64,000 bases of DNA, taken from NCBI GenBank assembly GCA_028288305.1, contig JAQBOA010000056.1, positions 54,026 through 118,025 of the forward strand, written 5' to 3'. Origin of the DNA: Mucilaginibacter sp. Lineage in GTDB: Bacteria > Bacteroidota > Bacteroidia > Sphingobacteriales > Sphingobacteriaceae. The translations under genes were made by a program, and so were the position numbers. This document shows positions 2,502 to 40,774 of the stretch, one piece after another (the stretch's first letter is position 1; every line of letters begins with the position of its first letter). The notes under the pieces were generated by a model. That model was not told where the DNA came from and did no database searches. It saw only the letters and a list, made by a program, of their open reading frames with translations.

Positions 2502-2590
2502 TTTAGATTTACGAATTACGATTTTAGATTTTACAAATCTAAAACATGGGATATAATTCCGAATCGTAAATCGTAAGTCGTAAATCGTAA
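2502..2590. repeat. Inverted heptamer tandem array (TTACGAT/ATCGTAA)
   Basis: Left arm TTTAGAT TTACGAA TTACGAT TTTAGAT; right arm ATCGTAA ATCGTAA GTCGTAA ATCGTAA. Confidence 0.85.
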
Positions 2591-2598
2591 ATAAAAAA

Positions 2599-3144
2599 AT
2601 GTCAGAATTAACAGTAGCATCCAGGTATGCAAAGTCACTTATCGATCTTGCTTCAGAACAAAATATTGTTGAAGCGATAAAGAATGATATGGATCTGTTT
2701 TTTAATACCTTAAAATCTAATCCTGAATTAAAGGCAGTTTTGGCTAATCCCATCGTGTCTCATGTAAAAAAAATAAAAATACTTGACGAGGTTTTTTCTA
2801 AAAAAGTGAATAAGGTAAGTATTGCGTTTTTTAAGCTGATGATTAACAAAAGCCGGGGTGAGGTTTTATATCCCACTGCTATTGAGTACATCAATATGTA
2901 CGATATTAAAAACAACATTGTTAAGGCATCAGTGGTATCAGCAACAGCTTTATCCGAAGCCAATAAACAAAAAATGGTTGCTGATATACAAGCAGCTACC
3001 GGCGGCAGTATAAAATTAGATGCAAAAGTGGATCCGTCTTTAATTGGCGGATTTGTTTTAACAGTAGGCGACAGGCAGATAGATACCAGTATTGCAAACG
3101 ACTTAAAGAAATTAAAAAAGGAATTTTCCCTTAGTGTGAATTAA
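2599..3144 (+). CDS. atpH: F0F1 ATP synthase subunit delta
   Basis: VASRYAKSL N-terminus, VDPSLIGGFVL motif, operon position. Confidence 0.96.
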   Translation: MSELTVASRYAKSLIDLASEQNIVEAIKNDMDLFFNTLKSNPELKAVLANPIVSHVKKIKILDEVFSKKVNKVSIAFFKLMINKSRGEVLYPTAIEYINMYDIKNNIVKASVVSATALSEANKQKMVADIQAATGGSIKLDAKVDPSLIGGFVLTVGDRQIDTSIANDLKKLKKEFSLSVN

Positions 3145-3170
3145 ACTAAAACCTAAAATAAATTTAAAAA

Positions 3171-4745
3171 ATGGTAGAGGTAAGACCAGACGAAGTATCA
3201 GCAATTTTGCGTCAGCAATTAGCAGGCTTCAAGTCAGAATCTGAATTAGAAGAAGTGGGTACTGTGCTCCAGGTGGGTGATGGTATTGCACGTGTTTATG
3301 GATTAACAAAAGTGCAATCAGGTGAGCTGGTTGAGTTTGGTACAGGTTTACGTGGTATCGTTCTTAATCTTGAAGAAGATAACGTAGGTGTGGTATTGCT
3401 TGGTAAATCTGATGATATTAAAGAAGGCGATACTGTAAAACGCACCAATAGGATTGCTTCTATTAACGTTGGTGAAGGTATGCTTGGTCGTGTGGTTGAT
3501 ACCTTAGGAAACCCTATTGATGGTAAAGGCCCGATAAAAGGTCAAACCTATGAAATGCCTTTAGAGCGTAAAGCGCCGGGAGTTATTTACCGCCAGCCGG
3601 TTACCGAGCCTTTGCAAACTGGTATAAAAGCTATTGATGCGATGATCCCAATTGGCCGCGGACAGCGTGAGCTGGTTATTGGTGATCGTCAGACCGGTAA
3701 AACTGCGGTTTGTATCGATACCATTATCAATCAAAAAGAATTTTACGAAGCTGGAAAACCAGTAATATGTATATATGTTGCCTGCGGACAAAAAGCTTCG
3801 ACAGTTGCAAACATCGTTCGTACACTTGATGAAAAAGGCGCAATGCCGTATTCAATCATTGTGGCGGCCAGTGCTGCAGACTCTGCTACAATGCAATTTT
3901 TTGCCCCTTTCGCAGGTGCTGCAATCGGCGAATATTTCCGTGATACAGGACGCCCGGCACTGATTATTTATGATGATCTTTCAAAACAAGCCGTCGCTTA
4001 TCGTGAGGTATCTTTATTATTGCGCCGCCCGCCAGGTCGTGAGGCTTATCCTGGTGACGTGTTTTACCTGCATAGCCGTTTATTAGAGCGTGCGGCTAAA
4101 ATAAGCCAGAACGATGCTATTGCTCAAGCAATGAATGACTTGCCTGAATCTATCAGGGGCATTGTAAAAGGAGGCGGTTCATTAACGGCATTGCCAATTA
4201 TTGAAACACAGGCAGGTGACGTATCAGCTTATATCCCAACAAACGTAATTTCAATTACCGACGGTCAGATATTCCTTGAATCTAACTTGTTTAACGCAGG
4301 TGTTCGTCCGGCTATTAACGTTGGTATATCTGTATCACGTGTAGGTGGTAATGCGCAGATCAAATCAATGAAGAAAGTTGCAGGTACTTTGAAACTTGAC
4401 CAGGCACAATATCGTGAGCTGGAAGCTTTTTCAAAGTTTGGCTCTGACCTTGATGCTTCAACAAAAAGTGTACTTGATAAAGGCGCGCGTAACGTTGAAA
4501 TTTTGAAACAAGGACAATATTCACCGGTATCAGTTGAAAAACAGGTAGCTATTATTTACCTCGGCACAAAAAATCTGTTGCGTAACGTGCCTGTAAATAA
4601 GATCAAAGAATTTGAAAACGATTTTACCAATCAGTTAGAGTCACGTCATCCTGAAGTATTGGCGGCTCTAAAAGCAGGTAAATTAGATGATCAGATAACC
4701 GGCGTATTGGAAACAATGGCTAAGGAAATGACAGGGAAATACTAA
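3171..4745 (+). CDS. atpA: F0F1 ATP synthase subunit alpha
   Basis: GDRQTGKT P-loop, [24 protein letters not shown]. Confidence 0.99.
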
Positions 4746-4877
4746 TTAGTAATTAGTATCAAGTATCAGGTATCAAGATTTTATCCTTTGATGCCTGATG
4801 CTTAAAATAAGTTAGTAAAAGTAGAAGGTATCTAAATCATTAAGGATCTTGATACTTGATACTAAATACTTGATACT
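4744..4877. repeat. Inverted heptamer tandem array (ATCAAGT/ACTTGAT)
   Basis: AATTAGT AATTAGT ATCAAGT ATCAGGT ATCAAGA ... TCTTGAT ACTTGAT ACTAAAT ACTTGAT. Confidence 0.85.
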
Positions 4878-4888
4878 CCAAAAGAAGA

Positions 4889-5773
4889 ATGGCTAATTTA
4901 AAAGAAGTAAGAAACAGGATTAAATCTGTAAGCTCAACGCAGCAGATCACCCGGGCTATGAAAATGGTTTCGGCAGCTAAGTTGAAAAGGGCTACAAACG
5001 CTATTATACAATTACGCCCGTATGCCAAAAAGCTAAAAGAGCTATTGGCAAACCTGTCGGCTAGTTTGGAAGATGGTTCATCTCCATTTTTGGTAGAAAG
5101 GGTGCCTAACCGTGTTTTAATTATCGTTGTATCATCCAACCGGGGTTTGGCAGGCGCTTTTAATGCTAATGTTATTAAAATGGCTAATAATTTAATAGCT
5201 GAAAAATACATGGAGCAATATAAAGCGGGTAATGTTTCTATCGTTGCAATTGGTAAAAAAAGCCAGGAGTATTACCAAAGACGCAAGTACAATGTTATTG
5301 GCAACAATAACGACCTGTACCTAGACCTTAACTTTGAAAATGCTTCAAAGATTACAGACAGCATAATGGAAGGATTTTTAAAAGGAAATTATGACCGGGT
5401 TGAACTGGTTTATAACCAATTTAAAAACGCTGCCATGCAGATATTAGTTTCTGAACAATTGATTCCTGTTCCGAAACCCGAAGTTAAGAAAGACAGCAAG
5501 CAATCCCAAGTTGATTATATACTGGAACCATCCCAGGAGCAGATAGTTGAGCAACTGATACCAAAAAATATAAAAATACAAGTATACAAGGCCGTATTGG
5601 ATTCGAATGCTTCTGAGCATGGCGCACGTATGACAGCTATGGATAAGGCTACCGATAATGCCGGTGAATTGTTAAAATCACTAAAACTATCTTATAACCA
5701 GGCACGCCAGGCGGCAATTACAACAGAACTTACCGAAATTGTAAGCGGGGCTGCTGCGTTGTCAAGTAATTAG
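4889..5773 (+). CDS. atpG: F0F1 ATP synthase subunit gamma
   Basis: ITRAMKMVSAAK, SNRGLAGAFN, NQARQAAITTELTEIVSGA. Confidence 0.98.
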   Translation: MANLKEVRNRIKSVSSTQQITRAMKMVSAAKLKRATNAIIQLRPYAKKLKELLANLSASLEDGSSPFLVERVPNRVLIIVVSSNRGLAGAFNANVIKMANNLIAEKYMEQYKAGNVSIVAIGKKSQEYYQRRKYNVIGNNNDLYLDLNFENASKITDSIMEGFLKGNYDRVELVYNQFKNAAMQILVSEQLIPVPKPEVKKDSKQSQVDYILEPSQEQIVEQLIPKNIKIQVYKAVLDSNASEHGARMTAMDKATDNAGELLKSLKLSYNQARQAAITTELTEIVSGAAALSSN

Positions 5774-5777
5774 AAAA

Positions 5778-5872
5778 TTGTCTGAACTAAGATTTTTAAG
5801 ATTAAAAGATGGTGGGATTTTGAATTTTAGTATCCTATAATCCTTAAATCCTAAAAATCTTAGTTCACACAA
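5778..5872. repeat. Palindromic repeat family B (TTGTCTGAAC...GTTCAGACAA with internal AATCCT units)
   Basis: Inverted termini; related copies at 16797-16905, 20717-20742, 24135-24161, 36226-36265. Confidence 0.8.
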
Positions 5873-5907
5873 TTAAACAAACCCCCCATTGCTTTGTTAT
5901 TATCCAC

Positions 5908-6111
5908 ATGACAAAGCCAGCAAACTCAAAAGATAAACCCTCGCCAGCCGATACACCTACCAAAAAGCCAAATGATAAGGGCGGGAAAAGCAAAGTAAGG
6001 AAAACTGACAAAGAATATCGTGAAGATAGCCCTCATGGCGGGGATATTGCAAAAAGATATGAGCAGGAAGAGCAGCCTGTAAAACCGGTAAAAGACTCAC
6101 CTAAGGAGTAG
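5908..6111 (+). CDS. Small hydrophilic hypothetical protein
   Basis: 67-aa Lys/Pro/Asp-rich ORF filling an intergenic gap; no motif recognised. Confidence 0.5.
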   Translation: MTKPANSKDKPSPADTPTKKPNDKGGKSKVRKTDKEYREDSPHGGDIAKRYEQEEQPVKPVKDSPKE

Positions 6112-6171
6112 TAAGAGGTCTTAAGTCACATTTCCAACTTAAGTCAAGACTTCGGACTAAAGACTTTGGAC

Positions 6172-7974
6172 TTAATCCCGGCTTATCCCTGCTGAATTAA
6201 ATTGTAAATCATATAATTTCCGGTAATAGCCATTTTCTATGCGCAATAGTTCCTGGTGTGTTCCTGATTCTTTTATTTCACCATGATCGAGCACTATAAT
6301 TTTATCTGCGTTTTGTATGGTAGATAAACGGTGGGCAATTACAATTGCTGTGCGGCCCTGCATAAGCTTATTTATAGCTTTTTGAATTAATATTTCAGTC
6401 TCAGTATCAACGGAGGAAGTTGCTTCATCTAAAACCAAAATAGTTGGATTATAAACTAAAGCGCGGATAAATGAAATAAGCTGCGCTTGTCCACCCGATA
6501 GGGTAGAACCCCTTTCCATTACATTATAATCATATCCTCCGGGCAAGCGTTCAATAAACTCATGCGCGCCTACGTCTTTCGCAGCAGCTATTACTTGCTC
6601 CCTTGTTATTTCGGAATTATTTAAACTAATATTATTGCCAATTGTATCGGTAAACAAAAAAACATCCTGTATTACAGTAGCAATCTTAGTCCGTAAATAG
6701 CTGACATCATATTCTCTAATATCAATTCCGTCAATCGTGACACTGCCTTTGCTTATTTCATAAAAGCGGTTTAAAATATTTATGGTTGATGATTTGCCAG
6801 CCCCGGTAGCACCCACCAATGCCAGGGTTTTACCTGGCTCTAGATGAAAGTTAATATTTTTTAATACCCAATTTTCATCGTTATAGGCAAACCAAACATG
6901 GTTAAATTTTATTTCGCCCAATAAGTTTGCCGGTTTTAATTTGCCGGTGTTAACTGCTACCTCATCCGTATCCAAAACCCTGAATATCCTGTCGGCGCCT
7001 ACCATACCCATTTGCAGCGTATTGAATTTATCGGCAAGCTGGCGTATAGGTCTGAAAAGAATATTCAGACAAAGAATAAATTCTAAAATAACGCCTGGGG
7101 TTACTCTGCCACGGGGTGTTGCAAGGGCATTTAATTGACTGTCGGTTAAAATACGTTTACAACCATACCATACCAATATCGCGATACATACGGCAAAAAG
7201 TATTTCAACCACAGGAAAAAAAATGGAATAATACAAGTTTGATTGGATGTTTGCATCCCTGTATTTTTTATTAACCGCCTTAAACTTGCGCATTTCCTGG
7301 TCTTCCCTCGAAAAAAACTGTATTACACTAATACCCGAAATATGCTCTGCCAAAAAAGTGTTCAAATGAGCAACCTGTGTGCGCACCTCTTGGAAAGATG
7401 ATTTTATTGCTTCCTTAAAAACATAAGTAGAAAGTAGCAGGAAAGGCATGGGTGTAAGCGTGATCAGAGCCAGTTTCCAATCTTTAAATATCATATATCC
7501 TATCACAGCAATTAATAGCAGCATGTCGCCCATGATGGAAATTAACCCTTCCGAAAAAATATCGGCAATAGTTTCCAGGTCTGATACGGTCCTGGTAATG
7601 AGCATCCCGATAGGAGTACGGTCGAAATATTTAAGCCTCAAACTGGTGATGTGATTAAATATATCAATCCGCAGATCGCGTATAACAGATTGACCAAGTG
7701 AGTTGGTTAGAAAAGTTTGATAATACTGTGCAGCAGTTTGAATGATTAGCTGACCCATCATCAGCTCAACCATAAAAACCAATCCCTGGTAATTATCTTT
7801 TAAGATATAATTATCAAGGGTTTTTTGCATCAGGATAGGCTGCACTAAAGCCGAGGCTGCCAAAAAGACGGTTAAAAATACCGAGATAACAAATGTTGTA
7901 TTATAAGGTTTAACATAATGCATTACCCGCTTTAGCAGTTTCCAATCAAGCGCTTTTCCTGTTACCTCAGACAT
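6172..7974 (-). CDS. ABC transporter ATP-binding/permease (MsbA-like exporter)
   Basis: TMD plus NBD; GATGAGKS Walker A, LSGGQAQ signature, LVLDEATS Walker B. Confidence 0.95.
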   Translation of the reverse strand: MSEVTGKALDWKLLKRVMHYVKPYNTTFVISVFLTVFLAASALVQPILMQKTLDNYILKDNYQGLVFMVELMMGQLIIQTAAQYYQTFLTNSLGQSVIRDLRIDIFNHITSLRLKYFDRTPIGMLITRTVSDLETIADIFSEGLISIMGDMLLLIAVIGYMIFKDWKLALITLTPMPFLLLSTYVFKEAIKSSFQEVRTQVAHLNTFLAEHISGISVIQFFSREDQEMRKFKAVNKKYRDANIQSNLYYSIFFPVVEILFAVCIAILVWYGCKRILTDSQLNALATPRGRVTPGVILEFILCLNILFRPIRQLADKFNTLQMGMVGADRIFRVLDTDEVAVNTGKLKPANLLGEIKFNHVWFAYNDENWVLKNINFHLEPGKTLALVGATGAGKSSTINILNRFYEISKGSVTIDGIDIREYDVSYLRTKIATVIQDVFLFTDTIGNNISLNNSEITREQVIAAAKDVGAHEFIERLPGGYDYNVMERGSTLSGGQAQLISFIRALVYNPTILVLDEATSSVDTETEILIQKAINKLMQGRTAIVIAHRLSTIQNADKIIVLDHGEIKESGTHQELLRIENGYYRKLYDLQFNSAGISRD

Positions 7975-7979
7975 TTTAT

Positions 7980-8219
7980 TTACGAATTACGATTTACGAA
8001 TTACGATTTTTTATTTCGGATTTTTCACTTTATAATTTGTTTTCAGTGGCGTTCAAGAGTGCTTCGCAGTTTCGGAATTACGATTTCGGATTTAATCTTT
8101 TTTAATTTTGGATGATAAATCTTTATTTATAATTCTCAACATTGAACTGATATTTTTGTCAATTTAGAATTGTCTTACTTTGTTTTTATAAATCTGAAAT
8201 CGTAATTCGTAAATCTTAA
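7980..8219. repeat. Inverted heptamer tandem array (TTACGAA/TTCGGAT ... ATCGTAA)
   Basis: TTACGAA TTACGAT TTACGAA TTACGAT at 7980-8007; second block ~8070-8095; inverted arm ATCTGAA ATCGTAA TTCGTAA at ~8193-8213. Confidence 0.8.
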
Positions 8220-8220
8220 A

Positions 8221-9054
8221 TTAATACCGCACTTCAGTTAGATACAAACCACAAGCCGGTACTGATGTCCCTGCATTACTACGGTTTTTACTTTCAATAA
8301 TATTGCGGACAGCTTCTGGCTCAATTTCATGTTTGCCTACCATTAAAAGGGTGCCTACAATTGCCCGTACCATATTACGTAAAAAACGATCTGCAGAGAT
8401 ATGAAAAACAATTCCATCATCTGTTAGTGTCCATTCCGCTTTTGTTATTTTACAAATATTGGTTTTAACTTGTGTATTTGATTTACTGAAACAGCTAAAG
8501 TCGATATGTTCTTTTATAATATCGGCAGCTTTATTCATTAAAAAAATATCCGGCTTATCACGGATCTGCCAGGAATACCCCTGTTTAAAAGGATCTTTAT
8601 TAAAATGGATATGATACTCATACGTACGTAAAACAGCATCAAACCGTGCGTGTGCACTTGCTTCAACCGGGAAAATATTTTTTACAGCAATATCATGGGG
8701 CAGTATGGAATTTATACTCCTTATCAAATTGATTTTGTCCATAGTCCATAGACCATAGTCCATGGAAGTTTCCCTGTTATTGAGGATGGTTCCCTCATTT
8801 TTACTTTCATTTATGGACCATGGACTATTGACTATGGACTCTCCTTCCGCATCGAAATGTGCAAAAAACTCCCTTGCATGTACACCTGTGTCCGTACGTC
8901 CACAACCGGTAGTCTCAATTTGTTCACGTAAAATAACAGATAGGCTTTTATTCAATACTTCCTGCACGCTTAATGCATTTGGCTGCACTTGCCAGCCATG
9001 ATAACGGGTACCATCAAAAGAAAGTTCAATAAAAAAGCGTTGTTTTTCGGACAC
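8221..9054 (-). CDS. truA: tRNA pseudouridine(38-40) synthase with internal in-frame repeat insertion
   Basis: FDGTRYHGWQVQ, GCGRTDTGVHA catalytic Asp, FLRNMVRAIVG; GTG start. Confidence 0.95.
   Translation of the reverse strand: MSEKQRFFIELSFDGTRYHGWQVQPNALSVQEVLNKSLSVILREQIETTGCGRTDTGVHAREFFAHFDAEGESIVNSPWSINESKNEGTILNNRETSMDYGLWTMDKINLIRSINSILPHDIAVKNIFPVEASAHARFDAVLRTYEYHIHFNKDPFKQGYSWQIRDKPDIFLMNKAADIIKEHIDFSCFSKSNTQVKTNICKITKAEWTLTDDGIVFHISADRFLRNMVRAIVGTLLMVGKHEIEPEAVRNIIESKNRSNAGTSVPACGLYLTEVRY
8737..8839. repeat. Inverted heptamer array inside truA (GTCCATA x4 / TATGGAC x4)
   Basis: GTCCATA GTCCATA GACCATA GTCCATG (8737-8764), 47-nt spacer, TATGGAC CATGGAC TATTGAC TATGGAC (8812-8839). 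Confidence 0.9.
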
Positions 9055-9063
9055 AGAGCAAGA

Positions 9064-9192
9064 AGTGTTGTAATGTTGAAAAGTTGTAATGTTGCAAAGT
9101 TATGGAAAATGTTTTAGAGGATTAGCTCATGAATTCTATATAATCGAATGAGTCAACCTTCAAACCTTACAACTTTTCAACCTTACAACATC
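9064..9192. repeat. Inverted octamer tandem array (GTTGTAAT/AACCTTAC)
   Basis: GTTGTAAT GTTGAAAA GTTGTAAT GTTGCAAA ... AACCTTAC AACTTTTC AACCTTAC AAC. Confidence 0.75.
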
Positions 9193-9204
9193 AAATAAAA
9201 AAAC

Positions 9205-9720
9205 CTAACTAATATACTCCTTATAGATAGATTCAAACATGATATTATTCTCAACGGCAATGTTGAAAGGGTGATCAAGGAAACTATTACTGTAACCTAT
9301 TGCCTTAGCAAGGTTTTTTAATACTTTGAAATAAGTTATTTCTATACCTTCTATCTGCTGTAAATAAAAAAGGATAAATACATCGCGTTCAAGGGGTGTT
9401 TTACCTGCTTTAATAGCTGCCAGATAAGCCTCCAGGGTCATGGCTTTTATGCCTAATGTATTTGTTTTAGACGGGCTGTCACCTATGGAATTGAATATTT
9501 TTTCCAGCTGATGCAGCTGATTTTCTGTATCGTCGTTTACTTCCTGCACGGCCAATTTCAAAACATTTAAAGTTGCCAGGCTTTTAATTTCTACAAAGAA
9601 ATTTATAAGGTGCTGTTTACCATAATAAATATAGTTTAAGTGCTCAAGGAAGATTTTTTTTAGCAACAGATCGTCCATCACTACATCTTTCGGTTGTAAA
9701 GAAGCTAAAGAATTACTCAT
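9205..9720 (-). CDS. DUF892/YciF-like ferritin-fold protein
   Basis: Helical pattern ..TENQLHQLEKIF.. and ..RDVFILFYLQQIEGIEITYFKVL..; ligands look degenerate. Confidence 0.7.
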   Translation of the reverse strand: MSNSLASLQPKDVVMDDLLLKKIFLEHLNYIYYGKQHLINFFVEIKSLATLNVLKLAVQEVNDDTENQLHQLEKIFNSIGDSPSKTNTLGIKAMTLEAYLAAIKAGKTPLERDVFILFYLQQIEGIEITYFKVLKNLAKAIGYSNSFLDHPFNIAVENNIMFESIYKEYIS

Positions 9721-10315: not shown

Positions 10316-10334
10316 TGGTTGTTTAACATAAGTT

Positions 10335-16905: not shown

Positions 16906-16979
16906 CAAAAAAAGTCTCCCCAAAATGAGAAGGCTTTTACGGATCAGCTTTCAGCTTTTACCTTTCGGCTTTCGCCTCA

Positions 16980-31356: not shown

Positions 31357-31361
31357 AAGAG

Positions 31362-31467
31362 ATTTCGGATTTCGGAATTTCGATTTCGGATTTCAGATAT
31401 AGGTTTACACCAATTAGGAACGATAGTAAAAAAATAATTTCGAAATCGAACATTCGATATCCGACAT
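31362..31467. repeat. Inverted heptamer tandem array (ATTTCGG/ATCCGAA-like)
   Basis: ATTTCGG ATTTCGG AATTTCG ATTTCGG ATTTCAG ... AATTTCG AAATCGA ACATTCG ATATCCG. Confidence 0.8.
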
Positions 31468-31476
31468 AAATAAAGC

Positions 31477-34400
31477 ATGAATCGATTTATAAAAAATATT
31501 CTTTCATTCGCACTCAGAAACAGGTTTTTCATTTTTTTTGTGACAGCCCTGCTTGCAGTTGCCGGTTATATAAGTTTTAAAACCATCAGTATTGATGCCT
31601 TTCCGGATGTTACCAATACATCCGTAACTATAATAACACAATGGCCCGGAAGAAGCGCAGAAGAAGTTGAAAAATTTGTTACCCGCCCCATTGAAATTGC
31701 CATGAATCCTGCTGAGAAAAAGACCAGCATCAGGTCGTCTTCTCTTTTTGGCCTTTCGGTAGTGAAAATAACATTTGATGATGAGGTTGACTACGCATTT
31801 GCGCGTTTGCAAATTAACAATCACATTGGTGATGCTAACTTACCCGATGGTGTAAATCCTTCCATTCAACCACCATATGGGCCAACAGGTGAAATATACC
31901 GCTTTACTTTAACCAGTAACCGTAAATCAGCCCGTGAATTAAAAACAATTGAAGATTGGGTGGTTGAACGCGAAATACGGGCTGTACCTGGCATAGCTGA
32001 TGTAAACAGTTTTGGTGGTGAAGTGAAAACCTACCAAATAACAGTTGATCCTGAAAAGGCTGTACAATATAATGTAACGCCATTGCAGGTATACGAGGCA
32101 GTATCAAAAAGCAACGTTAATGTGGGTGGTGATGTAATTCAACAAAGCGGACAGGCTTATGTTGTACGAGGAATCGGCTTGCTGAATAATATTGATGAGA
32201 TTAAGAATATTGTTATAAACAATATAAAAGGGACTCCGATATATGTAAAAACTATAGCTGAGGTTACGGAATCCGCGCTGCCCAGGCTTGGGCAAGTGGG
32301 CCGTGGTAAGGACCCGGATGTTATTGAAGGTATAGTGGTAATGCGCAAAGGTGAAAACCCAAGCGTAGTTATTAAAAATCTGAAAACAAAAATCCAGGAA
32401 CTTAATAATAAGATTTTGCCTGATGATGTTAAGCTTAGTACCTTTTATGACCGTGAAACCCTGGTAAACTTTGCAACCAATACAGTGTTACATAACATGA
32501 CCGAAGGTATAATCTTTGTTACGGTTATCGTCTTCTTATTTATGGCCGATTGGCGTACTACTCTCATCGTATCACTCATTATTCCGCTTGCCCTTTTATT
32601 TGCATTTATCTGTTTAAAGCTAAAAGGAATGTCGGCAAACCTGCTATCAATGGGCGCTATAGATTTCGGGATCATTATTGATGGTGCAGTGGTAATGGTA
32701 GAAGGGATTTTTGTAGTGCTGGACAGTAAAGCCAAAGAAGTTGGTATGGCACAATATAACCGTTTAAGTAAACTTGGCTTAATTAAAAGGGCTTGCCTGG
32801 TAAACGGCAAGGGTATATTTTTTGCTAAACTCATTATTATTACCGGCTTACTGCCGATTTTCAGCTTTGAGAAGGTTGAAGGTAAAATGTTTTCGCCTTT
32901 AGCATGGACGCTTGGTTTCGCTTTACTTGGTGCAGTTATTTTAACATTCACTTTCGTGCCTGCTTTAGCCAGCGTACTGCTTAATAAAGACGTTAAAGAA
33001 AAGCATAATGTATTTGTTGAGTTTATCACGAAGAACGCTATGAAGTTTTACTCATTTTGCTTCAAGGCCAGAAAAGTAGTTTTTCCGGTTGCCATAATTT
33101 CTCTGGTTATCAGTCTGTTCTGCTTTACATTTTTAGGAACTGAGTTTTTACCCGAACTAAATGAAGGGGCTATCTATGTACGTGCCACAGGTCCGTTAAG
33201 TATTTCATTAAAAGAATCGGTTAAGCTGGCAAACGAAATGCGCAATATATTTTTAAGCTTTGATGAAGTAAAACAAGTATTATCGCAAACTGGCAGGCCT
33301 AATGACGGTACTGATGCCACAGGATTTTATAATATAGAGTTCCATGTGGATATTTACCCGGAAGATCAGTGGAAAAGAAAGGAAACTAAAGAGGAACTTA
33401 TTGAACGGATGCAGGAAAAGCTAAAATATATTCCTGGCATTGATATAAACTTTTCTCAACCAATATCTGATAACGTTGAAGAAGCGGTATCAGGAGTTAA
33501 GGGATCCATTGTTGTAAAGATGTTTGGGGATGATTATAAGTTTATCGAAAAAAACGAGCAAAGCATATATTCTATATTAAAAGGCGTAAAAGGCATTGAG
33601 GATTTAGGCATACTTCACGATGTAGGGCAGCCCGAGTTACAAATAGATCTTAACCAGCAAAAAATGGCTCAATATGGCGTAACTGCTGCAGATGCAAACG
33701 CCGTGATTGAGATGGCCATTGGCGGCAAAGCTGCAACCCAGATATACGAAGGTGAGCGTAAATTTGATCTCCGTATACGGTACCCTGAGGATTTCAGGAA
33801 CAATGAAGAATCAATAGGCGACTTACGTGTACCAACACTTAACAACAATACTGTACCCCTGCGTGAAATTGCCAGTATTAAAAAAATTACTGGGATTAGT
33901 ATGATCTACCGTGATGATCACAAGCGTTATGGCGCAATTAAATTTTCTATAAGGGGCAGAGATATGGGTAGCACTGTAAATGAAGCCCAGAATAAAGTAA
34001 ATGCTCAAATAAAACTGCCAAAAGGGTATTCTTTGCAATGGGCAGGTGACTTCGAAAATCAGCAGCGGGCTACTAAAAGATTAAGCCAGGTAGTACCTAT
34101 CAGCTTGCTCATTATTTTCTTTATTTTATTTATACTGTTTGGAAATTTCAGGGATTCCCTGCTTGTACTTAACAATGTGCCATTCGCTATTATGGGCGGT
34201 ATACTGGCGTTGCTTATAACCGGAATTAACTTCAATATTTCGGCAGGTATTGGATTTATTGCTTTGTTCGGTATTTGTGTACAAAACGGGGTAATCTTAA
34301 TCACGAAATTCAAAAGCAATATTTTTGAATTAAAACATCACACTACCTGGACATCATTTGCAGTTGCTATAAGGGCAGGTGTAGCTGACCGCTTACGGCC

Positions 34401-34608
34401 TGTAGTAATGACAGCATTGATGGCTGCAATAGGTTTATTACCGGCTGCAATGTCACACGGTATAGGGTCTGAAGCATCAAAACCATTGGCTATTGTAGTA
34501 ATAGGCGGACTCATAACCAACACCATATTCAATTTATTCATTTTCCCTATTGTGTTTTTCTGGTCATACCGCAAAAGAGTTGAAAGCGGTCTCGTAAACC
34601 GGATTTGA
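31477..34608 (+). CDS. CusA/CzcA-family heavy-metal RND efflux pump
   Basis: IDAFPDVTN, GAIDFGIIIDGAVVMVE, RLRPVVMTA, GSEASKPLAIVVIGG. Confidence 0.95.
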   Translation: MNRFIKNILSFALRNRFFIFFVTALLAVAGYISFKTISIDAFPDVTNTSVTIITQWPGRSAEEVEKFVTRPIEIAMNPAEKKTSIRSSSLFGLSVVKITFDDEVDYAFARLQINNHIGDANLPDGVNPSIQPPYGPTGEIYRFTLTSNRKSARELKTIEDWVVEREIRAVPGIADVNSFGGEVKTYQITVDPEKAVQYNVTPLQVYEAVSKSNVNVGGDVIQQSGQAYVVRGIGLLNNIDEIKNIVINNIKGTPIYVKTIAEVTESALPRLGQVGRGKDPDVIEGIVVMRKGENPSVVIKNLKTKIQELNNKILPDDVKLSTFYDRETLVNFATNTVLHNMTEGIIFVTVIVFLFMADWRTTLIVSLIIPLALLFAFICLKLKGMSANLLSMGAIDFGIIIDGAVVMVEGIFVVLDSKAKEVGMAQYNRLSKLGLIKRACLVNGKGIFFAKLIIITGLLPIFSFEKVEGKMFSPLAWTLGFALLGAVILTFTFVPALASVLLNKDVKEKHNVFVEFITKNAMKFYSFCFKARKVVFPVAIISLVISLFCFTFLGTEFLPELNEGAIYVRATGPLSISLKESVKLANEMRNIFLSFDEVKQVLSQTGRPNDGTDATGFYNIEFHVDIYPEDQWKRKETKEELIERMQEKLKYIPGIDINFSQPISDNVEEAVSGVKGSIVVKMFGDDYKFIEKNEQSIYSILKGVKGIEDLGILHDVGQPELQIDLNQQKMAQYGVTAADANAVIEMAIGGKAATQIYEGERKFDLRIRYPEDFRNNEESIGDLRVPTLNNNTVPLREIASIKKITGISMIYRDDHKRYGAIKFSIRGRDMGSTVNEAQNKVNAQIKLPKGYSLQWAGDFENQQRATKRLSQVVPISLLIIFFILFILFGNFRDSLLVLNNVPFAIMGGILALLITGINFNISAGIGFIALFGICVQNGVILITKFKSNIFELKHHTTWTSFAVAIRAGVADRLRPVVMTALMAAIGLLPAAMSHGIGSEASKPLAIVVIGGLITNTIFNLFIFPIVFFWSYRKRVESGLVNRI

Positions 34609-34650
34609 TTAAAATGACTGATACCCCTGTTTCATATATTTTTTGTTGAA

Positions 34651-34676
34651 GGCAGTGCAGCATAGCTGCACTTGCC
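34651..34676. terminator. Hairpin between convergent RND and VOC genes
   Basis: GGCAGTGCAGC-ATA-GCTGCACTTGCC. Confidence 0.5.
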
Positions 34677-34753
34677 GGATACAATAAGTCTTTACCAAAT
34701 GGCTTTTGGTTATCTGTTTTCAAATCTTATTTTGAACTGAACTGACCAATCTT

Positions 34754-35179
34754 CTATGCCTGGTGTTGATTCATATAACTAAGCATCCACTGAATACCAA
34801 ACTGATCGGTTACCATTCCAAAAAATGCTCCCCAAAATTGATGACCCAGCGGCATTGTGACTATGCCACCTTCAGACAGACGATTAAACACCCTGGTAGT
34901 TTCTTCCTCACTACTGGTATCCAATGTTACCATAAAATTATTCCCTGCATTAACAGTTCCTCTACCCTGCGGCATATCCATACCCATTAATACCGAGTTG
35001 CCTACAGGTAAAGCCGCATGCAGGACTTTTTCACCCTCTTCCGCAGACATTGGAGGAGCACCCGGCATTTCTTTCATGCGTTGAAAATTGATGAAGTCTC
35101 CGCCAAATATGGATTTGTAAAAATTCAAAGCAGCTTCTGTCTTTCCATTGAAGATTATTGTAATATTAATTGCTTTCAT
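34754..35179 (-). CDS. VOC/PhnB-family protein
   Basis: FNGKTEAALNFY, VLHAAL, LSEGG, FWGAFFGMVTDQFGIQWM. Confidence 0.92.
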   Translation of the reverse strand: MKAINITIIFNGKTEAALNFYKSIFGGDFINFQRMKEMPGAPPMSAEEGEKVLHAALPVGNSVLMGMDMPQGRGTVNAGNNFMVTLDTSSEEETTRVFNRLSEGGIVTMPLGHQFWGAFFGMVTDQFGIQWMLSYMNQHQA

Positions 35180-35395
35180 TTTTAATTGGTTTTATTTATC
35201 AAATATACTTCAGGCGCGATAGATTTGATGGGGGATTTCATGACCTTTTTAGGGGTATTTAATGACAAAATAAAAAAGCGGATTCTGGTTTCTTATTTTG
35301 TTGCTACTTACCATCAAATTGAATTGAAAAATAAAATGCAAAAAAGCCGTGCAATACCCAAAAAAAATGTTTTTTTGAAGAAAAAATAGGATTAA

Positions 35396-36199
35396 ATGGC
35401 TCATTTATTTTTATCATCCGGAATTATATTGTTAACTGCAATACATGGCCTTTATGCCGATTTATTTTTATTGGCCGCAGGTTTATTGGCAGGAATATTC
35501 AATGCAGTTGCGGGCGGCGGTACATTTATAAGCATGCCGGTGCTTATTTATGCAGGTTTACCATCTGTTGCTGCAAATGCATCGAGTACGGTTGCTTTAT
35601 TCCCCGGAAGCCTTGCCAGCATATATGCTTATCGCGAGGATTTTAAAAGTTTTGAAAATGTCTCCTTAAAAAACCTCATCCAGATTTCCCTTGTCGGTGG
35701 TTGTATTGGTGCAGTATTGTTGCTTTTTACTCCCTCACAAAATTTCGATAAAATAATTCCCTGGCTTGTATTAACAGGTGCCCTGATGTTTATTTTTGGG
35801 AGGCAGATTTCCAGGCTGCTGCAAAACAAGTTTAAGCTAAATAAATGGGTTCTATTTTCCCTGCAATTTATATTAGGAATATATGGTGGCTATTTTGGAG
35901 GCGGAGCAGGTATAATGATGATGGCGGTATGGAGTATGTTGGGACTCACCGATATTAAATTAATAAACGTAAATAAAACTTTATTAGTTGGAGCAGCCAA
36001 TTCAGTTGCCGTAGTTATTTTTATTTTCTCGGGGAAAATATATTGGATGCAAACATGTATAATGCTTGTGGCGGCTATTATTGGCGGTTATATTGGCGCT
36101 TCTTACGCACGCAGGTTAAATCAAGACGTTTTAAGAGGAGTAATAAGTTTCCTGATTGTTTTGATCACTGTATTTTTCTTTTACCGGGCTTACAGGTAG
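35396..36199 (+). CDS. TauE/SafE-family exporter
   Basis: NAVAGGGTF, ANASSTVAL, GIYGGYFGGGAG. Confidence 0.9.
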   Translation: MAHLFLSSGIILLTAIHGLYADLFLLAAGLLAGIFNAVAGGGTFISMPVLIYAGLPSVAANASSTVALFPGSLASIYAYREDFKSFENVSLKNLIQISLVGGCIGAVLLLFTPSQNFDKIIPWLVLTGALMFIFGRQISRLLQNKFKLNKWVLFSLQFILGIYGGYFGGGAGIMMMAVWSMLGLTDIKLINVNKTLLVGAANSVAVVIFIFSGKIYWMQTCIMLVAAIIGGYIGASYARRLNQDVLRGVISFLIVLITVFFFYRAYR

Positions 36200-36320
36200 G
36201 AAGAGAGCTTCCACCCGCTAACATTCTGTAAATCCTCAAATCCTGTAAATCCTGATTCAAACAATAAGAAGATACTTCACAAGCCTATCAGCCTCAAGGT
36301 AGAAACACCTTAGTTCCCAA

Positions 36321-37565
36321 TTATAACCACAACGATAGTATCGCCGCCAAAAGTGCAGGAATCATAACCAGGAAACCAAGTTTCAGGAAGCTCCAGGCGC
36401 TAACGTATTGCCCTTCACGCCGTAAGGCCACCAACCATAGTATGGTAGCAAGGGAACCTGTTATGGAAAGGTTCGGCCCAAGATCAACTCCAATCAGGAT
36501 AGCACTTTTTACAATTTCGGGTACGTGGCCGGCCTGCACGGTATTACCTGCAATAAGGCCAACCGGCAGGTTATTCATCAGGTTACTGGCAAATGCAATA
36601 ACAAAGCCGCTTCCCCAGGTAGCGCCGGTAACTGAATGAGCCGCACTTTGATGCAGCATAGTTGTTAGGGTTTTTATTAATCCTGTTTTATTTAATGCCT
36701 CAACAATTATAAATAATCCGGCAACGAGCGGAATAACAGACCATGAAACGCCTTTTATAACAACCCATGGATTTTTCTTTGCCCGTATAATCACAATTGC
36801 TGATGTTAATATCCCGGTAATGGCTGTAGGCATGCCAAGCTGCACATTAAACGCTGAGGCAACAAGCAAAATAATCGCTGTCGCCACAATCCCTAATATG
36901 GCTGTCCGGCCACCTTCAGAAAGGGCCGGCACCGGAATATTACGCTCAATTTTCTGTTTTAACACATTTCGCTGAGTAAATCGAAGCATCAAATAGGTAA
37001 CAGTAATCGCAAAAATCGATGGCAAAATATATTTGGGCAGCCATTGCAATAAAGGAGGCATATGGCTGCCATAAATTACCAGGTTAGCAGGGTTTGAAAT
37101 TGGCAGAACAAAAGAAGCGGCGTTCGCAATAAATGCACAAATAAGCAAGTAGGGCAACGGTTTCTCTACCTTAGCCGCTTTAACCGATGCAGCCACAGCC
37201 GGTGTCAGCACAACAGCAGTGGCATCATTGGATAAAAATACGGTGACCACAATTCCAACCAGGTAAATTAAAAGAAATAAGCTATCCGGATTTCCTTTGG
37301 CCAGTTTGGTTGCATGTGCTGCCAGCCAATCGAAAAGCTTCTCTTCCCTTGCGGTTTCTGCCAGCAGCATCATGCCCGTCAAAAACAGGTAAACATCAGT
37401 ACCTTTTATAATACCTGTTAAGCCCTCAGATGGTAAAATGAGACCTGAAACAATTAACAAAACTGCACCTGCTACAGCCCAAATTGCTTCTGATACCTTG
37501 AAAGGACGAATGATTACACCGGCTATAGCTAAAAATGAGATTATCCAAACGGCGATATGGTACAT
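36321..37565 (-). CDS. ArsB/NhaD-family permease
   Basis: LSNDATAVVLTP, SFVLPISNPANL, GVDLGPNLSITGSLATILW. Confidence 0.9.
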   Translation of the reverse strand: MYHIAVWIISFLAIAGVIIRPFKVSEAIWAVAGAVLLIVSGLILPSEGLTGIIKGTDVYLFLTGMMLLAETAREEKLFDWLAAHATKLAKGNPDSLFLLIYLVGIVVTVFLSNDATAVVLTPAVAASVKAAKVEKPLPYLLICAFIANAASFVLPISNPANLVIYGSHMPPLLQWLPKYILPSIFAITVTYLMLRFTQRNVLKQKIERNIPVPALSEGGRTAILGIVATAIILLVASAFNVQLGMPTAITGILTSAIVIIRAKKNPWVVIKGVSWSVIPLVAGLFIIVEALNKTGLIKTLTTMLHQSAAHSVTGATWGSGFVIAFASNLMNNLPVGLIAGNTVQAGHVPEIVKSAILIGVDLGPNLSITGSLATILWLVALRREGQYVSAWSFLKLGFLVMIPALLAAILSLWL

Positions 37566-37788
37566 ATTATAATTATAGCGCAGCGGCTAAGTGCAGATGA
37601 AAAATTGAAAAATTAGGCAAAACTACTTAAAAGCTTGAAAGTTTAGGTATGTCGATCTCTTGCATAATTCAGAAGGGCCAGAGTTTTTATCGTAATGATA
37701 GTTTCCCTGGCCCTTCACAAAAATTAAAGAAAATTTTAATAGAATAAGTGCGGCATGCTAATAAAGCGCCACAGACTATTTATGACCT

Positions 37789-38103
37789 TCAATCAGCGGG
37801 TTTATCCCTTAATTGAGATTTTTTGAGGAATACTCTGTGTCCTCTTTTATTTATATAATAATAACGGGAATCCTCATTTATATAAATGGTTTGTCCGTGA
37901 GGGCCTTGTTTGCCTTCATATCTTTTATCAACAACAGCTGCCGCACCTTTTGCGCCAAGCTCTGCTGTTTTATGACCAACTTTTTTTGCTGCATGGCCTA
38001 TTTTATGGCCAAGGCCCGTGTCTTTTTCGGTAGTTTGAGCGTGGCTTTGAGAAAAGGAAAGCATCCCCGCAGCAACCAGCGCAACTTTAATTACATTTTT
38101 CAT
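37789..38103 (-). CDS. Small secreted protein with PBCV basic-adaptor-like C-terminus
   Basis: Signal peptide ending HAQ; KQGPHGQTIYINEDSRYYYINKRGHRVFL motif. Confidence 0.65.
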   Translation of the reverse strand: MKNVIKVALVAAGMLSFSQSHAQTTEKDTGLGHKIGHAAKKVGHKTAELGAKGAAAVVDKRYEGKQGPHGQTIYINEDSRYYYINKRGHRVFLKKSQLRDKPAD

Positions 38104-38130
38104 GGTTTTTAATTAGTTAATATTAAAATA

Positions 38131-39144
38131 CTAACTCAATTGTTCGGCCAAATGTTTCATTTCCAGGACTGGAGGCCGTTTCTGATATAAAATGGCATAT
38201 ACGGCATCGCATATGGGTATATTAACTTTGTATTGTTTATTCACCTGGTGTAGGCAATTTACTGCATAATAACCTTCGGCTATCATATTCATCTCTAACT
38301 GAGCCGATTTTACAGTATATCCCTTACCAATCATATTGCCAAAAGTGCGGTTACGGCTAAATTGCGAATAAGCAGTAACCATCAAATCGCCCAGGTAGGC
38401 AGATTCCTTTATGTCGCGGTCTATTGGGTGTACGGCAGCAACAAAACGTTCCAGTTCGCGGATAGCATTGGATATTAAAACCGCCTGGAAATTATCGCCA
38501 TATCCAACTCCGTGACAAATACCGCTGGCAATGGCATAAATGTTTTTTAAAACCGCACCGTATTCCGTACCATAAATATCATCCGAAATAATGGTTTTAA
38601 TATACCTGGTACTGATCATCCCCGCAAATTCAGCAGCCAATTCAGTATCACGGGATGCAATGGTGAGATAGGACAGTTTTTCGAGCGCCACTTCTTCGGC
38701 ATGGCAAGGTCCGCTGATCACCACAAAATTTTCAAACGGAACGCCGAAATGCTGGTTCAAAAATTCACCGATAATTTGGTTTTCATCAGGCACAATGCCT
38801 TTTATAGCTGATATAATTTTTTTTCCGGCCAGATCTTCAGCACTTATACCTATCAATGCTTCCTTTAAAAACGCGGCAGGTACATTTAATAAAACAAAAT
38901 CGGCCTGTGCGATAAGTCCTTTTAAATCTGTCGAAATATTTTTTGCAGGTACATTAACCTCAACAGAACTGAGATAATTGGGATTATGCCTGAACTTATG
39001 GATATGCTCAACAGCACGTTCATTGCGCATCCACCAAAAAATTTCTTTTTCTGCAGCATTATCAGCAAGCATTTTAATATTTGCTGTAGCCCAGCTACCG
39101 CCGCCAACAACGGTGATCTTATTCTTTTGTTTAACCATTAACAA
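38131..39144 (-). CDS. gpsA: NAD(P)H-dependent glycerol-3-phosphate dehydrogenase
   Basis: GGGSWATA, ISAIKG, SGPCHAEEV, LKNIYAI, GDLMVTAYSQFSRNRTFG. Confidence 0.93.
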   Translation of the reverse strand: MLMVKQKNKITVVGGGSWATANIKMLADNAAEKEIFWWMRNERAVEHIHKFRHNPNYLSSVEVNVPAKNISTDLKGLIAQADFVLLNVPAAFLKEALIGISAEDLAGKKIISAIKGIVPDENQIIGEFLNQHFGVPFENFVVISGPCHAEEVALEKLSYLTIASRDTELAAEFAGMISTRYIKTIISDDIYGTEYGAVLKNIYAIASGICHGVGYGDNFQAVLISNAIRELERFVAAVHPIDRDIKESAYLGDLMVTAYSQFSRNRTFGNMIGKGYTVKSAQLEMNMIAEGYYAVNCLHQVNKQYKVNIPICDAVYAILYQKRPPVLEMKHLAEQLS

Positions 39145-39206
39145 TAAAAATGTCCTGCCAGGTTTAATTGACAGGAGGCAAATTTAATGAAATAGTTTGT
39201 TAGTTC

Positions 39207-39324
39207 AGTTTACGGTTGGCAGTTCACAGTTAGCAGCATAAAAAAAGTTACAGTTATCAGCTTGCAGCAGGCAAGTTTATAACACTTATGCAAACTGCCT
39301 ACTAAAAACTGCCCACTGAAATCT
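39207..39324. repeat. Inverted heptamer tandem array (AGTTAGC/GCCTACT-like)
   Basis: AGTTTAC GGTTGGC AGTTCAC AGTTAGC ... GCAAACT GCCTACT AAAAACT GCCCACT. Confidence 0.75.
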
Positions 39325-40657
39325 ACTTCCCGTCCCCAACAAATAATTTACCCTTATCCACCTTTTCAACCATCATATTATCCGTTAAAAGTTTTGTAAT
39401 TGTGGCAAACGGAGCCGATACTACCTCATCTCCGCTTTTTAAGCCGTATAATACCTGTATATAACTATCATCCTGTATCCCTGTTGTTACCTGTACCTGT
39501 TTTACTTTACCGGCTTTGTAAACAAATACATACTCTTTTACCGGGGCAATTATTTTAGGTTTATTATCGTCATTACCTTGCTTTTGCGGACCAGGAGCAG
39601 CTTTTTTCTCCTCGCGTGTCGTAACTGATTGAATTGGTACTGATAAAGATTTTGCATGACTGGTATTTATATCAACAGTAGCTGTAAGTCCCGGCCTGAA
39701 AGGTGAAGGATTTGCAGCAGTTTTAGCAAGCAGGTTTTTATACGATTGCGGGCTTATCCTTACCTTAACTGTAAAATTGGTCACCTGGTCGGCATTGGTA
39801 CCAACAACATTTGCCGAGCTGCCAATTTCTGTTACTACTCCTGTGAAATTTTTACCTGAAAAAGCGTCAACTTCAATTTTTGATGAATTGCCAAGTTGAA
39901 TCCGGTTAATATCATTTTCATTAACGTCAACATTTACATCTAACTGACTTAAGTCTGATATGGTCATGATCTCTGTACCGGCAAATTGTTGTGTTCCAAG
40001 CACGCGCTCACCCTTTTGGATTGATAATTTAGAAACCACCCCGTCAACAGGTGCATAAATAGTCGTTTTAGCAAGGTTATCAGCGGCTTCTTTTACTGAG
40101 GCTGATGATTGTGCAAGGCCATAAGTTGAACCTATTACATTTTGCTTTGCAGCTTCAAATGCAGCTTGCGCCCCTTCAAAGCTTGCTTTAGCTGCCTCAA
40201 ATTCTGCTGTAGTTATCACTTTGTTTTCATAAAGTGCTTTATCACGTTTATATATTGATGACTGGTTATCAAAAGTTGCCTGCGCTTGTTTCAGCATTTG
40301 GTTCGAGTTACCTATGCTTGCTTTTTGTGTATTATAGGAAGCCACAGCGCGGTCATATCCCGATTTCAATATATCCGGCCTTATTTTACAAAGCAGCTGC
40401 CCTTTTTTTACCACATCGCCTTCTTTTATAGGCAATTCAACAACCTCACCCGAAACTTCAGGGCTTATTTTAACTTCCACATGCGGTTTTATTTTTCCGC
40501 TGGCCGATACTGTCTCATTAATTTCTCTAACGGCAGCTTTTTCAGTAGCAACCTGGGTCTTTTTAGGTTTGCCTATGAGACCGGTCATATTAGCTACTAC
40601 GATCAATACGATCAGTACGCCTAATGAAATAAGAATATATTTTGTAGTTTTTCCCAT
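39323..40657 (-). CDS. Efflux membrane fusion protein (MacA/HlyD-like)
   Basis: SASGKI, EGDVVKKGQLL, IYAPVDGVV, PFRPGLTATVDI. Confidence 0.92.
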   Translation of the reverse strand: MGKTTKYILISLGVLIVLIVVANMTGLIGKPKKTQVATEKAAVREINETVSASGKIKPHVEVKISPEVSGEVVELPIKEGDVVKKGQLLCKIRPDILKSGYDRAVASYNTQKASIGNSNQMLKQAQATFDNQSSIYKRDKALYENKVITTAEFEAAKASFEGAQAAFEAAKQNVIGSTYGLAQSSASVKEAADNLAKTTIYAPVDGVVSKLSIQKGERVLGTQQFAGTEIMTISDLSQLDVNVDVNENDINRIQLGNSSKIEVDAFSGKNFTGVVTEIGSSANVVGTNADQVTNFTVKVRISPQSYKNLLAKTAANPSPFRPGLTATVDINTSHAKSLSVPIQSVTTREEKKAAPGPQKQGNDDNKPKIIAPVKEYVFVYKAGKVKQVQVTTGIQDDSYIQVLYGLKSGDEVVSAPFATITKLLTDNMMVEKVDKGKLFVGDGK

Positions 40658-40667
40658 GATTCTTTTT

Positions 40668-40774
40668 TATTTCGGATTTCGAATGTTCGATTTCGGATTT
40701 ATTTTAATTTCCGATTTATTTCTTAATTTTTGTCTTTTAATTTGTCATCTGCAAATTCGCACATCTGCACATCT
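40668..40774. repeat. Short tandem arrays (TTTCGGA heptamers; CATCTGCA octamers)
   Basis: TTTCGGA TTTCGAA TGTTCGA TTTCGGA; CATCTGCA AATTCGCA CATCTGCA. Confidence 0.7.

Follow-up and report, generated by a model that had tools for sequence, protein, structure and literature searches.

Inverted heptamer and octamer arrays in a Mucilaginibacter genome and their probable kinship with S23p cassettes

The stretch of DNA considered here (the window: 64,000 nucleotides, C73:54026-118025 of G000, the assembly of a soil Mucilaginibacter, 4.9 Mb in 109 contigs, with 37.8% GC and an estimated completeness of 91%) contains a series of short tandem arrays of 7- or 8-nt units, most of which are arranged as an inverted pair of arms around a unique spacer. 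They occupy gaps between genes of the atp operon, lie beside genes for an ABC transporter, truA, a DUF892 protein and the HlyD- and AcrB-type components of an efflux pump, and in one instance are found inside truA itself. There is no rRNA in the window, all elements being located between protein-coding genes or inside truA, and an Rfam scan of the window gives no family. The best relatives of the truA neighbourhood are from Mucilaginibacter (Sphingobacteriaceae, Bacteroidota), with 72% amino-acid identity. We describe these elements and their counterparts elsewhere in the genome and the genus, and consider their relationship to genes of family PF05635, which encode S23p, the '23S rRNA intervening-sequence protein' (IVP).

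Armed elements in the window and the genome

The original prediction listed at least nine inverted-array loci. Seven of the nine are long hairpins with complementary 7- or 8-mer arms of 26-35 nt and z-scores of -3.5 to -8.8, hairpin strength being expressed as the z-score of the minimum free energy (MFE) against shuffled sequences, but the locus at 40669 is a two-family hybrid without a hairpin and that at 6112 is weak (Table 1). The further statement that both arms of an element agree is correct for the seven complementary pairs, paired arms agreeing at about 88%, and incorrect for the hybrid. A single arm, noted near 16928, is present and has no partner, and octamers were rightly read at 9064 and 40746.

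Table 1. Armed elements of the window, by window position, and IVP relics elsewhere in G000, by contig position (TRF, Tandem Repeats Finder; x, number of tandem units)
Position	Setting and description	Left arm	Right arm	MFE	z
2500-2592	Hairpin, TTTACGA family; fills atpF-atpH spacer (ATP-synt_B/OSCP genes)	ATTTTAG/ATTTACG/AATTACG x4.9 (2500-2533)	AATCGTA x4.4 (2562-2592)	-27.0	-6.1
4743-4877	Hairpin; fills atpA-atpG spacer; 70 nt between arms	AGTATCA x3.3 (TRF, 4755-4777)	CTTGATA x4.3 (TRF, 4848-4877)	-45.8	-8.8
6112-6172	Weak/degenerate element (TRF and direct reading); C-rich arm adjoins ABC transporter stop	Degenerate partner	AAGACTTCGGACTAAAGACTTTGGACT (AGTCCGAA family, 6146-6172)		-1.5
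7978-8221	Nested 244-nt element between ABC transporter start (7974) and truA stop (8221); ATTTCGG-type units inside (about 8012-8025 and 8063-8093)	TTTACGA-type (7978-8009)	AATCGTA-type (8189-8221)	-49.4	-3.5
8737-8840, minus strand	Hairpin within truA reading frame, in frame; spacer 48 nt (8764-8811)	GTCCATA x3.9 (8737-8763)	TATGGAC x4.1 (8812-8840)	-42.8	-8.0
9067-9189	Octamer-armed hairpin between truA (start 9054) and DUF892 gene (stop 9205)	GTTGTAAT/GTTGAAAA x4.4 (9067-9101)	CAACCTTA x4.5 (9154-9189)	-34.1	-4.3
16933-16973	Single arm without partner	TCAGCTT-type x4.3			-0.8
31361-31467	Hairpin, ATTTCGG family, between HlyD-type membrane-fusion gene and AcrB-type pump gene	GATTTCG x5.4 (31361-31398)	TCGAAATCGAACATTCGATATCCGACAT (31439-31467)	-28.5	-4.6
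39206-39321	Hairpin between two minus-strand genes	CAGTTNG-type (39206-39236; period 7, TRF gives 14)	AAACTGCC-type (39292-39321)	-34.8	-5.2
40669-40774	Hybrid spacer, two families, no hairpin; arms non-complementary, handedness retained	Exact family 28-mer ATTTCGGATTTCGAATGTTCGATTTCGG (40669-40696; exact match C73:94694)	CATCTGCA octamer array (40746-40774), ACATCTGC family		-1.4
C56:18804-19103	IVP pseudogene	TTAGTGAA	TTCACTAA
C80:34890-35120	IVP pseudogene	TTTACGA	AATCGTA
C76:51776-52003	IVP remnant in GTCATT-armed 'gene-less' element (tblastn 1e-7, blastn 5.5e-12)

Read in sense, the 3' arm of the element within truA (ATGGACT x4) encodes MDYGLWTMD and matches a nine-codon, heptamer-periodic stretch (ATGGnnn x4) that is found in all relatives, genus-wide; it is the other arm together with the spacer, 75 nt in frame, that is extra in G000 and adds 25 amino acids to a variable loop. 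A different insertion occupies this position in Mucilaginibacter lappiensis, and no target-site duplication beyond a palindromic TCCATGGA was seen at the insertion in G000. Unit turnover in place within truA was considered and set aside, as an old array frozen by coding constraint better explains why the ATGG core is conserved and third positions vary. Upstream of truA (window 9055-9066 and the orthologous sites L013-L028), the regions all end in TAnnTTTG, as ACCTTTGC or AACTTTGC, which is the Bacteroidota -7 promoter box; the box directly follows the C-rich arm, placing the arm upstream of the promoter and not in the leader. Elsewhere in the window, at 57852-58427, there is a tandem duplication of 291 bp (2.0 copies, 83% identity).

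Genome-wide, arrays were detected with TRF, which degenerate arms escape, and positioned relative to crude longest-ORF (open reading frame) gene calls. Arrays of at least three copies number 126 at period 7 and 71 at period 8; an order-3 Markov simulation produced 3 and 1. Neighbouring arrays of the same period are reverse complements within one mismatch in 86 of 139 cases at period 7 and 47 of 82 at period 8, whereas matches in direct orientation number 13 and 3. The scan for inverted pairs that had been proposed thus finds them far above chance, with at least 129 pairs after de-duplication, and the 44 canonical units from which they are built confirm that units differ by locus and that conservation is stronger for architecture than for sequence. 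Each unit is AT-rich, contains one or two G and lacks G-tracts. In total G000 has about 840 arrays, at least one being present in 662 of the 2950 intergenic spacers of 40 nt or more (22%). All but one of the 129 pairs are intergenic, the median distance to the gene on either side being 8 nt; the segment between the arms has a median length of 50 nt and is 16 nt or less in one tenth of cases. The gene-orientation contexts of the pairs (37 ++, 36 --, 31 -+ and 21 +-) are near background. By comparison, 12-kb loci around truA contain 0-7 arrays each in Mucilaginibacter species, and 60 other Bacteroidota loci (668 kb) yielded 34 arrays and one pair.

The arms sort into dispersed families of some 28-35 nt, each with a fixed odd unit, as illustrated by the patterns GTCATTA GTCATTGT GTCATTA GTCATT, AGTATCA AGTAGCT AGTATCA AGTATCA and ATTTCGG ATTTCGA ATGTTCG ATTTCGG. 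The last of these, searched as a 28-mer with up to three mismatches, occurs in 111 of the 121 Mucilaginibacter species genomes that make up our genus survey, at up to 118 copies and with 36 in G000, while the reversed pattern used as a control gave 0; in a sister survey of 143 genomes from 36 other genera of the family it was found in none. The GTCATT arm occurs in 48 of the 121 species, its high counts being patchy and burst-like, and some species have few or no arrays at all. At C12:130075 and C43:29322 of G000, two nearly identical tRNA genes are each followed, a few bases past their 3' end, by the start of an ATTTCGG-family arm. An 18-nt palindrome, TCCCGAT(A/G)GCTATCGGGA, is nested at the same position within ATTTCGG-family arms of two species (C76:57396 of G000, and both arms of the truA-ABC spacer at locus L014).

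A single handedness is common to all families. The G-rich arm is 5' in 117 of 129 pairs, on either strand, and when arm families were paired genome-wide by blastn-short, a procedure that undercounts diverged arms, short-range pairs always ran from G-rich to C-rich and never in the reverse order. Arrays beside stop codons have G>C in sense in 84-86% of cases and those beside start codons C>G in 79-84%; array-free spacers have only a weak skew. Individual arms are direct tandem arrays and not palindromes. Arms resemble their own partners no more closely than they resemble same-family arms of other elements, and a test for co-variation of the two arms beyond the family consensus detected none. 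Some spacers are hybrid, with the G-rich arm of one family and the C-rich arm of another. The segments between arms are unique, only 6 trivially similar pairs being found among 120, and for this reason the elements cannot be assigned to one miniature inverted-repeat transposable element (MITE), as the original prediction had also argued. Between long-range arm pairs, 0.4-6 kb apart, there are only ordinary genes and no transposase.

Comparison of orthologous spacers shows persistent occupancy combined with changing identity. The atpF-atpH spacer has an armed hairpin in G000 and in 9 of 12 relatives, so that presence is widely shared, but the hairpins belong to five families (TTTACGA, ATTTCGG, GAGAT/TCTCAAA, AAAGTTG and GTGAGTG), that of G000 included, and unit identity is not maintained. 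Of the remaining relatives, two have short spacers without clear arrays, although one of these may retain a trace of the ATTTCGG type, and in the third the spacer measures only about 15 nt. Relatives' spacers orthologous to 7978-8221 hold other families or hybrids, and the family at 9067-9189 recurs at the orthologous site in relatives L014 and L015. At atpA-atpG of L014, the closest relative, the arms are nearly identical and the spacer is 16 nt as opposed to 70 nt.

A tandem array of about 20 FtsX-like (MacB-type) permease genes occupies C55:5921-60401 of G000, and in nearly every one the C-rich arm AATGACTAATGACACAATGACTAATGACC lies a few bases before the ATG, its 5' partner often being replaced by other repeats. 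In a subgroup of these paralogs a one-base change, AATGAC to AATGAAC, is present in all four units of the arm. The GTCATT arms of these paralogs indicate that part of the spread is host-gene duplication and that units change in concert.

Association with S23p genes

PF05635 genes were found in 120 of the 121 genus genomes, at 1-20 copies each. Twenty sampled IVP genes, encoding proteins of 117-123 amino acids, sit between housekeeping genes and have complementary arrays on both sides, G-rich upstream and C-rich downstream, as detected by TRF in 16 and by eye in the other 4. When all 40 IVP copies of three genomes were considered, fragments included, 24 were flanked by arrays, whereas the same rule applied to G000 picked out 13 of 4083 genes and none of 855 small genes. 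Co-occurrence with genes of the four-helix-bundle/IVP type, which had been suggested from the window, is therefore borne out. Among the sites of IVP genes are those directly preceding a conserved MSGHMNLTLKVWRQK... gene and an MKITEHIANAKGKTLFSFE... gene; from these downstream N-termini only, the commonest sites read as sdhA-sdhB and metH-metF, names that are to be taken as tentative.

The families that flank IVP genes are those of the window: GTCATT, ATTTCGG, TTTACGA, GTCCATA, GTTGTAA, AGTATCA and ATTAGTGA. AGTATCA/CTTGATA arms, as at 4743-4877, flank IVP genes in L105, L108 and L110, and GTTGTAAA/AACATTAC arms, of the 9067-9189 family, flank one IVP clade in L144 and L153. In a maximum-likelihood tree, IVP clades track arm families across genomes and different loci, with support of 100/99-100. 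The association extends beyond the genus, PF05635 being present in 119 of 151 genomes of the phylum; at phylum IVP loci the flanks form an inverted repeat with a score of at least 14 in 22 of 30 cases and in none of 30 controls, and a heptamer periodicity is visible in the arms. An IVP protein of the genus matches Protein Data Bank entry 2GSC, of Xanthomonas campestris (five chains), a structure described as a homopentamer of four-helix bundles (PMC4990558).

G000 itself yields just two PF05635 hits; each is a pseudogene of a divergent IVP subfamily, interrupted by an internal stop, and each lies inside an armed element. An IVP remnant was also recognized within a GTCATT-armed element that had appeared to be gene-less, and this is the exact site of an intact cassette in a relative. 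A search of G000 with the 20 canonical IVP proteins, by hidden Markov model and tblastn, gave no match, and no trace was found in other G000 spacers beyond the two pseudogenes and the C76 remnant.

REPIN-like palindromes (GTCATTGCGAGG..AAGCAATCGCGAACTA..CCTCGCAATGAC; REPIN denotes a hairpin-forming doublet of repetitive extragenic palindromic, REP, sequences) occur at C82:16457-16570, C102:19952-20096 and C73:48567-48759 of G000, the last just upstream of the window. Spacers with such palindromes in G000 hold IVP cassettes in relatives, which suggests that these sites are hot spots common to different repeat classes.

Origin of the elements

Elements with and without an IVP gene have in common their families, their handedness and their location at housekeeping genes; IVP clades correspond to arm families; and G000 retains a single decayed intermediate. 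The reading that we favour, with moderate confidence, is that the arrays of the window belong, as members without a gene, to a superfamily of palindromic intergenic cassettes that spans the genus and resembles the S23p intervening sequence (IVS). IVSs of this type include that of Coxiella burnetii and also relatives in Leptospira and Xanthomonas. The Coxiella IVS, 428 nt within 23S rRNA, has a terminal stem of 28 bp, and GACAGAT heptamers, three to four in tandem, stand before its S23p ORF; RNase III excises the element, the ORF is decaying and the number of heptamers varies between strains (PMC4990558). The likenesses are a terminal stem of about 28 bp, arms built of heptamers, a purine/G-rich 5' arm, a PF05635 gene in the loop (here in relatives) and decay of that ORF. 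The differences are that IVSs lie in helix 45 or 25 of 23S rRNA while the Mucilaginibacter elements lie between, and once inside, protein-coding genes; that the nine elements of the window have no ORF, and each genome has many arm families; and that RNase III excision, shown for the IVS, is only inferred for the Mucilaginibacter elements.

On this model, an arm would consist of about four tandem units of 7-8 nt (28-35 nt), drawn from one of a dozen or more families, G-rich at the 5' side and C-rich at the 3' side. A full-length cassette would carry in its loop a PF05635 gene of roughly 117-130 amino acids, whose product is expected to be a pentameric four-helix bundle, and short copies would have lost this gene or never possessed it. 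Arms transcribed together could form a double-stranded RNA stem of roughly 28 bp, and by analogy with the Coxiella IVS such stems are probably cut by RNase III when transcribed, which would make the insert tolerable inside operons and would also split or stabilize the flanking cistrons. More weakly, we infer that the pentameric IVP recognizes arrays of four to five units and takes part in copying or keeping cassettes. Slippage might then alter unit number and homogenize units, and deletion and nested insertion could yield unique spacers and hybrid pairs. Slippage had been put forward as one possible source of the units; it survives as a secondary process, evident in arrays of up to 13-25 units and in the same change in four units, and not as their source. 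With no intact IVP gene in a 91%-complete assembly, the elements of G000 may now be inert relics, and co-option for operon mRNA processing or for the leaders of downstream genes is possible.

Several observations weigh against this account. No IVP trace was found in any element of the window, and descent from cassettes is therefore argued by family likeness and not locus by locus. G000 has some 840 arrays yet no intact IVP gene, which might be absent from the assembly only, and across the 121 genomes IVP copy number correlates only weakly with the number of ATTTCGG arms (Spearman 0.24, p 0.007, uncorrected for phylogeny). The match between IVP clades and arm families is partly confounded by orthologous sites, and 16 of 63 GTCATT arms adjoin FtsX-like permease paralogs, where the copies arose through host-gene duplication together with their spacers. 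At the RNA level, hybrid pairs are unable to form a stem, so that not every element can give an RNA hairpin; roughly a quarter of pairs are flanked by divergent genes, and their two arms may fall on different transcripts; and sense-strand G.U pairs, counted as a test for RNA-level selection, show no asymmetry or excess. Finally, a non-exhaustive search turned up neither a target-site duplication nor a transposase or any other enzyme for copying.

The strongest of the alternatives, though on balance an unlikely one, regards the elements as host regulatory RNA or DNA elements under selection and independent of IVP, which stabilize or split operon mRNAs, couple translation or provide, in their C/A-rich arms, unstructured leaders before start codons. 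It would account for the occupancy of atpF-atpH in spite of family change, for the proximity of arms to gene ends and their skew beside starts and stops, for the retention of the C-rich arm before nearly all FtsX-like paralogs when the partner has been replaced, and for the conservation of arms between close relatives while the spacer changes. It is at odds with gene-orientation contexts close to background, with the want of a G.U excess, with hybrids that cannot pair, with a C-rich arm at truA that precedes the promoter box and so lies outside the leader, with species that have few or no arrays and with the relative whose atpF-atpH spacer is reduced to about 15 nt. Through co-option it is also compatible with descent from S23p-type cassettes.

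According to a second alternative, the hairpins are of purely local genesis, each expanding at its own site from a short seed as a 7-8-nt unit slips during replication, with hairpin-templated strand switching copying changes to the other arm and no copying between loci. Local generation of units was also the mechanism advanced in the original prediction. Variation in unit number, with arrays of 9-13 and up to about 25 units, the strain-level variation of Coxiella (PMC4990558), the concerted change to AATGAAC, the appearance of an inverted arm beside a pre-existing array in truA and the uniqueness of spacers are all in keeping with it. It founders on the families: one 28-mer with the same odd third unit recurs at dozens of loci and in 111 of 121 species, own partners are no closer than the arms of other elements, two-family hybrids exist, one handedness holds over all families and the same families flank one specific gene family, IVP. 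As the sole process, local genesis is already largely refuted, and we accord it only a slight chance.

It is very improbable that the elements are several families of ordinary transposase-driven MITEs, or of REPINs mobilized by REP-associated tyrosine transposases (RAYTs), with one enzyme each. Terminal inverted repeats of about 30 nt, burst-like copy numbers and the presence of classical REP-like palindromes in G000 would be expected under such a scheme, but no spacer sequence is common to the members of a family, an arm taken singly is a tandem repeat and not a palindrome, neither a transposase between long-range pairs nor a target-site duplication was seen in a non-exhaustive search, and a dozen or more families would require as many enzymes. 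Invertible (phase-variable) promoter segments such as the invertons of Bacteroides, for which the phylum Bacteroidota is known, likewise have inverted repeats around a unique segment, but the chance of this explanation is negligible, since the spacers are too short for a promoter or for inversion, many elements lie within housekeeping operons and there are hundreds per genome.

Relation to other repeats and wider meaning

No paper on such repeats in Mucilaginibacter was found in the literature, and comparison must be made with repeats described elsewhere. The original prediction named the short tandemly repeated repetitive (STRR) heptamers of cyanobacteria as the closest analogue; these were reportedly described by Mazel and colleagues in 1990 and defined in heterocystous cyanobacteria. 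Tandem heptamers are dispersed through the non-coding DNA of G000 as STRRs are through intergenic DNA, and one unit of G000, GTCATTG, can be rotated to TTGGTCA, taken here as the cyanobacterial STRR2. STRR membership was rejected, however, as the best relatives of the truA neighbourhood are Mucilaginibacter and not heterocystous cyanobacteria; because the genome belongs to a different phylum, the comparison remains an analogy only, and the inverted-pair and cassette design falls outside the STRR definition. The palindromic elements of Rickettsia are able to sit in frame inside protein-coding genes, as the insertion in truA does, but they have unrelated sequences and arms that are not built as arrays of heptamers.

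Of the heptamer repeats of Xanthomonas (GGGAATC) and Nostoc (GGGGAYT), 89-93% lie between genes, near the ends of ORFs (Rehm et al. 2015, PMC4692102). Those of Xanthomonas have a four-unit preference and about 70 convergent inverted pairs per genome, which are potential stem-loops, their function being unknown, and S23p is unmentioned in that study (PMC4692102). The four-unit preference, the convergent inverted pairs and the intergenic sites near ORF ends are all present in G000. The difference lies in the units: a single G-tract unit (GGGNATC), studied as a former of G-quadruplexes, as against many AT-rich units without G-tracts, plus octamers. TAACTGA repeats of Beggiatoaceae, cyanobacteria and some Bacteroidetes likewise form arrays, with 2-6 heptamers set a few nucleotides ahead of start codons, but they have a single unit, are almost all direct (one inverted case of 169) and have no reported cassette gene (PMC4679880). 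REPs, bacterial interspersed mosaic elements (BIMEs) and REPINs are short dispersed intergenic repeats that often form inverted pairs inside operons, where REPs stabilize upstream mRNA (PMC3116915). They resemble the elements described here in these respects and differ in that the REP is itself an imperfect palindrome that bears a GTAG/CGTC tag and has its cognate RAYT, and that REPIN spacers are conserved, as opposed to direct tandem arms and unique spacers.

A wider proposal, which we put forward tentatively and regard as rather doubtful, is that PF05635 genes and inverted 7/8-mer arrays constitute one unrecognized, cross-phylum class of selfish cassette, in which the pentamer would read four to five units of its own arm family and the RNA would be removed or neutralized by RNase III. 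Gene-less derivatives would then explain STRRs, the Xanthomonas GGGAATC repeats and the Mucilaginibacter families alike, and the IVS of 23S rRNA would be only the best-known insertion site.

Tandem intergenic heptamers have been reported since 1990 without an origin or a function, and S23p is a protein whose structure has been solved but to which no role is assigned. In Mucilaginibacter the two go together, with the same families, the same handedness and the same kinds of site, whether or not the gene is present. For genome annotation, it is of consequence that about a fifth of intergenic spacers are occupied, that an element may lie in frame within a gene, as in truA, and that elements part the cistrons of core operons (atp in G000, and in relatives sites that read as sdh and met from N-termini only). 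Both puzzles thereby become questions for the bench: the binding of arms by the pentamer, the cutting of operon mRNAs by RNase III and the movement of cassettes.

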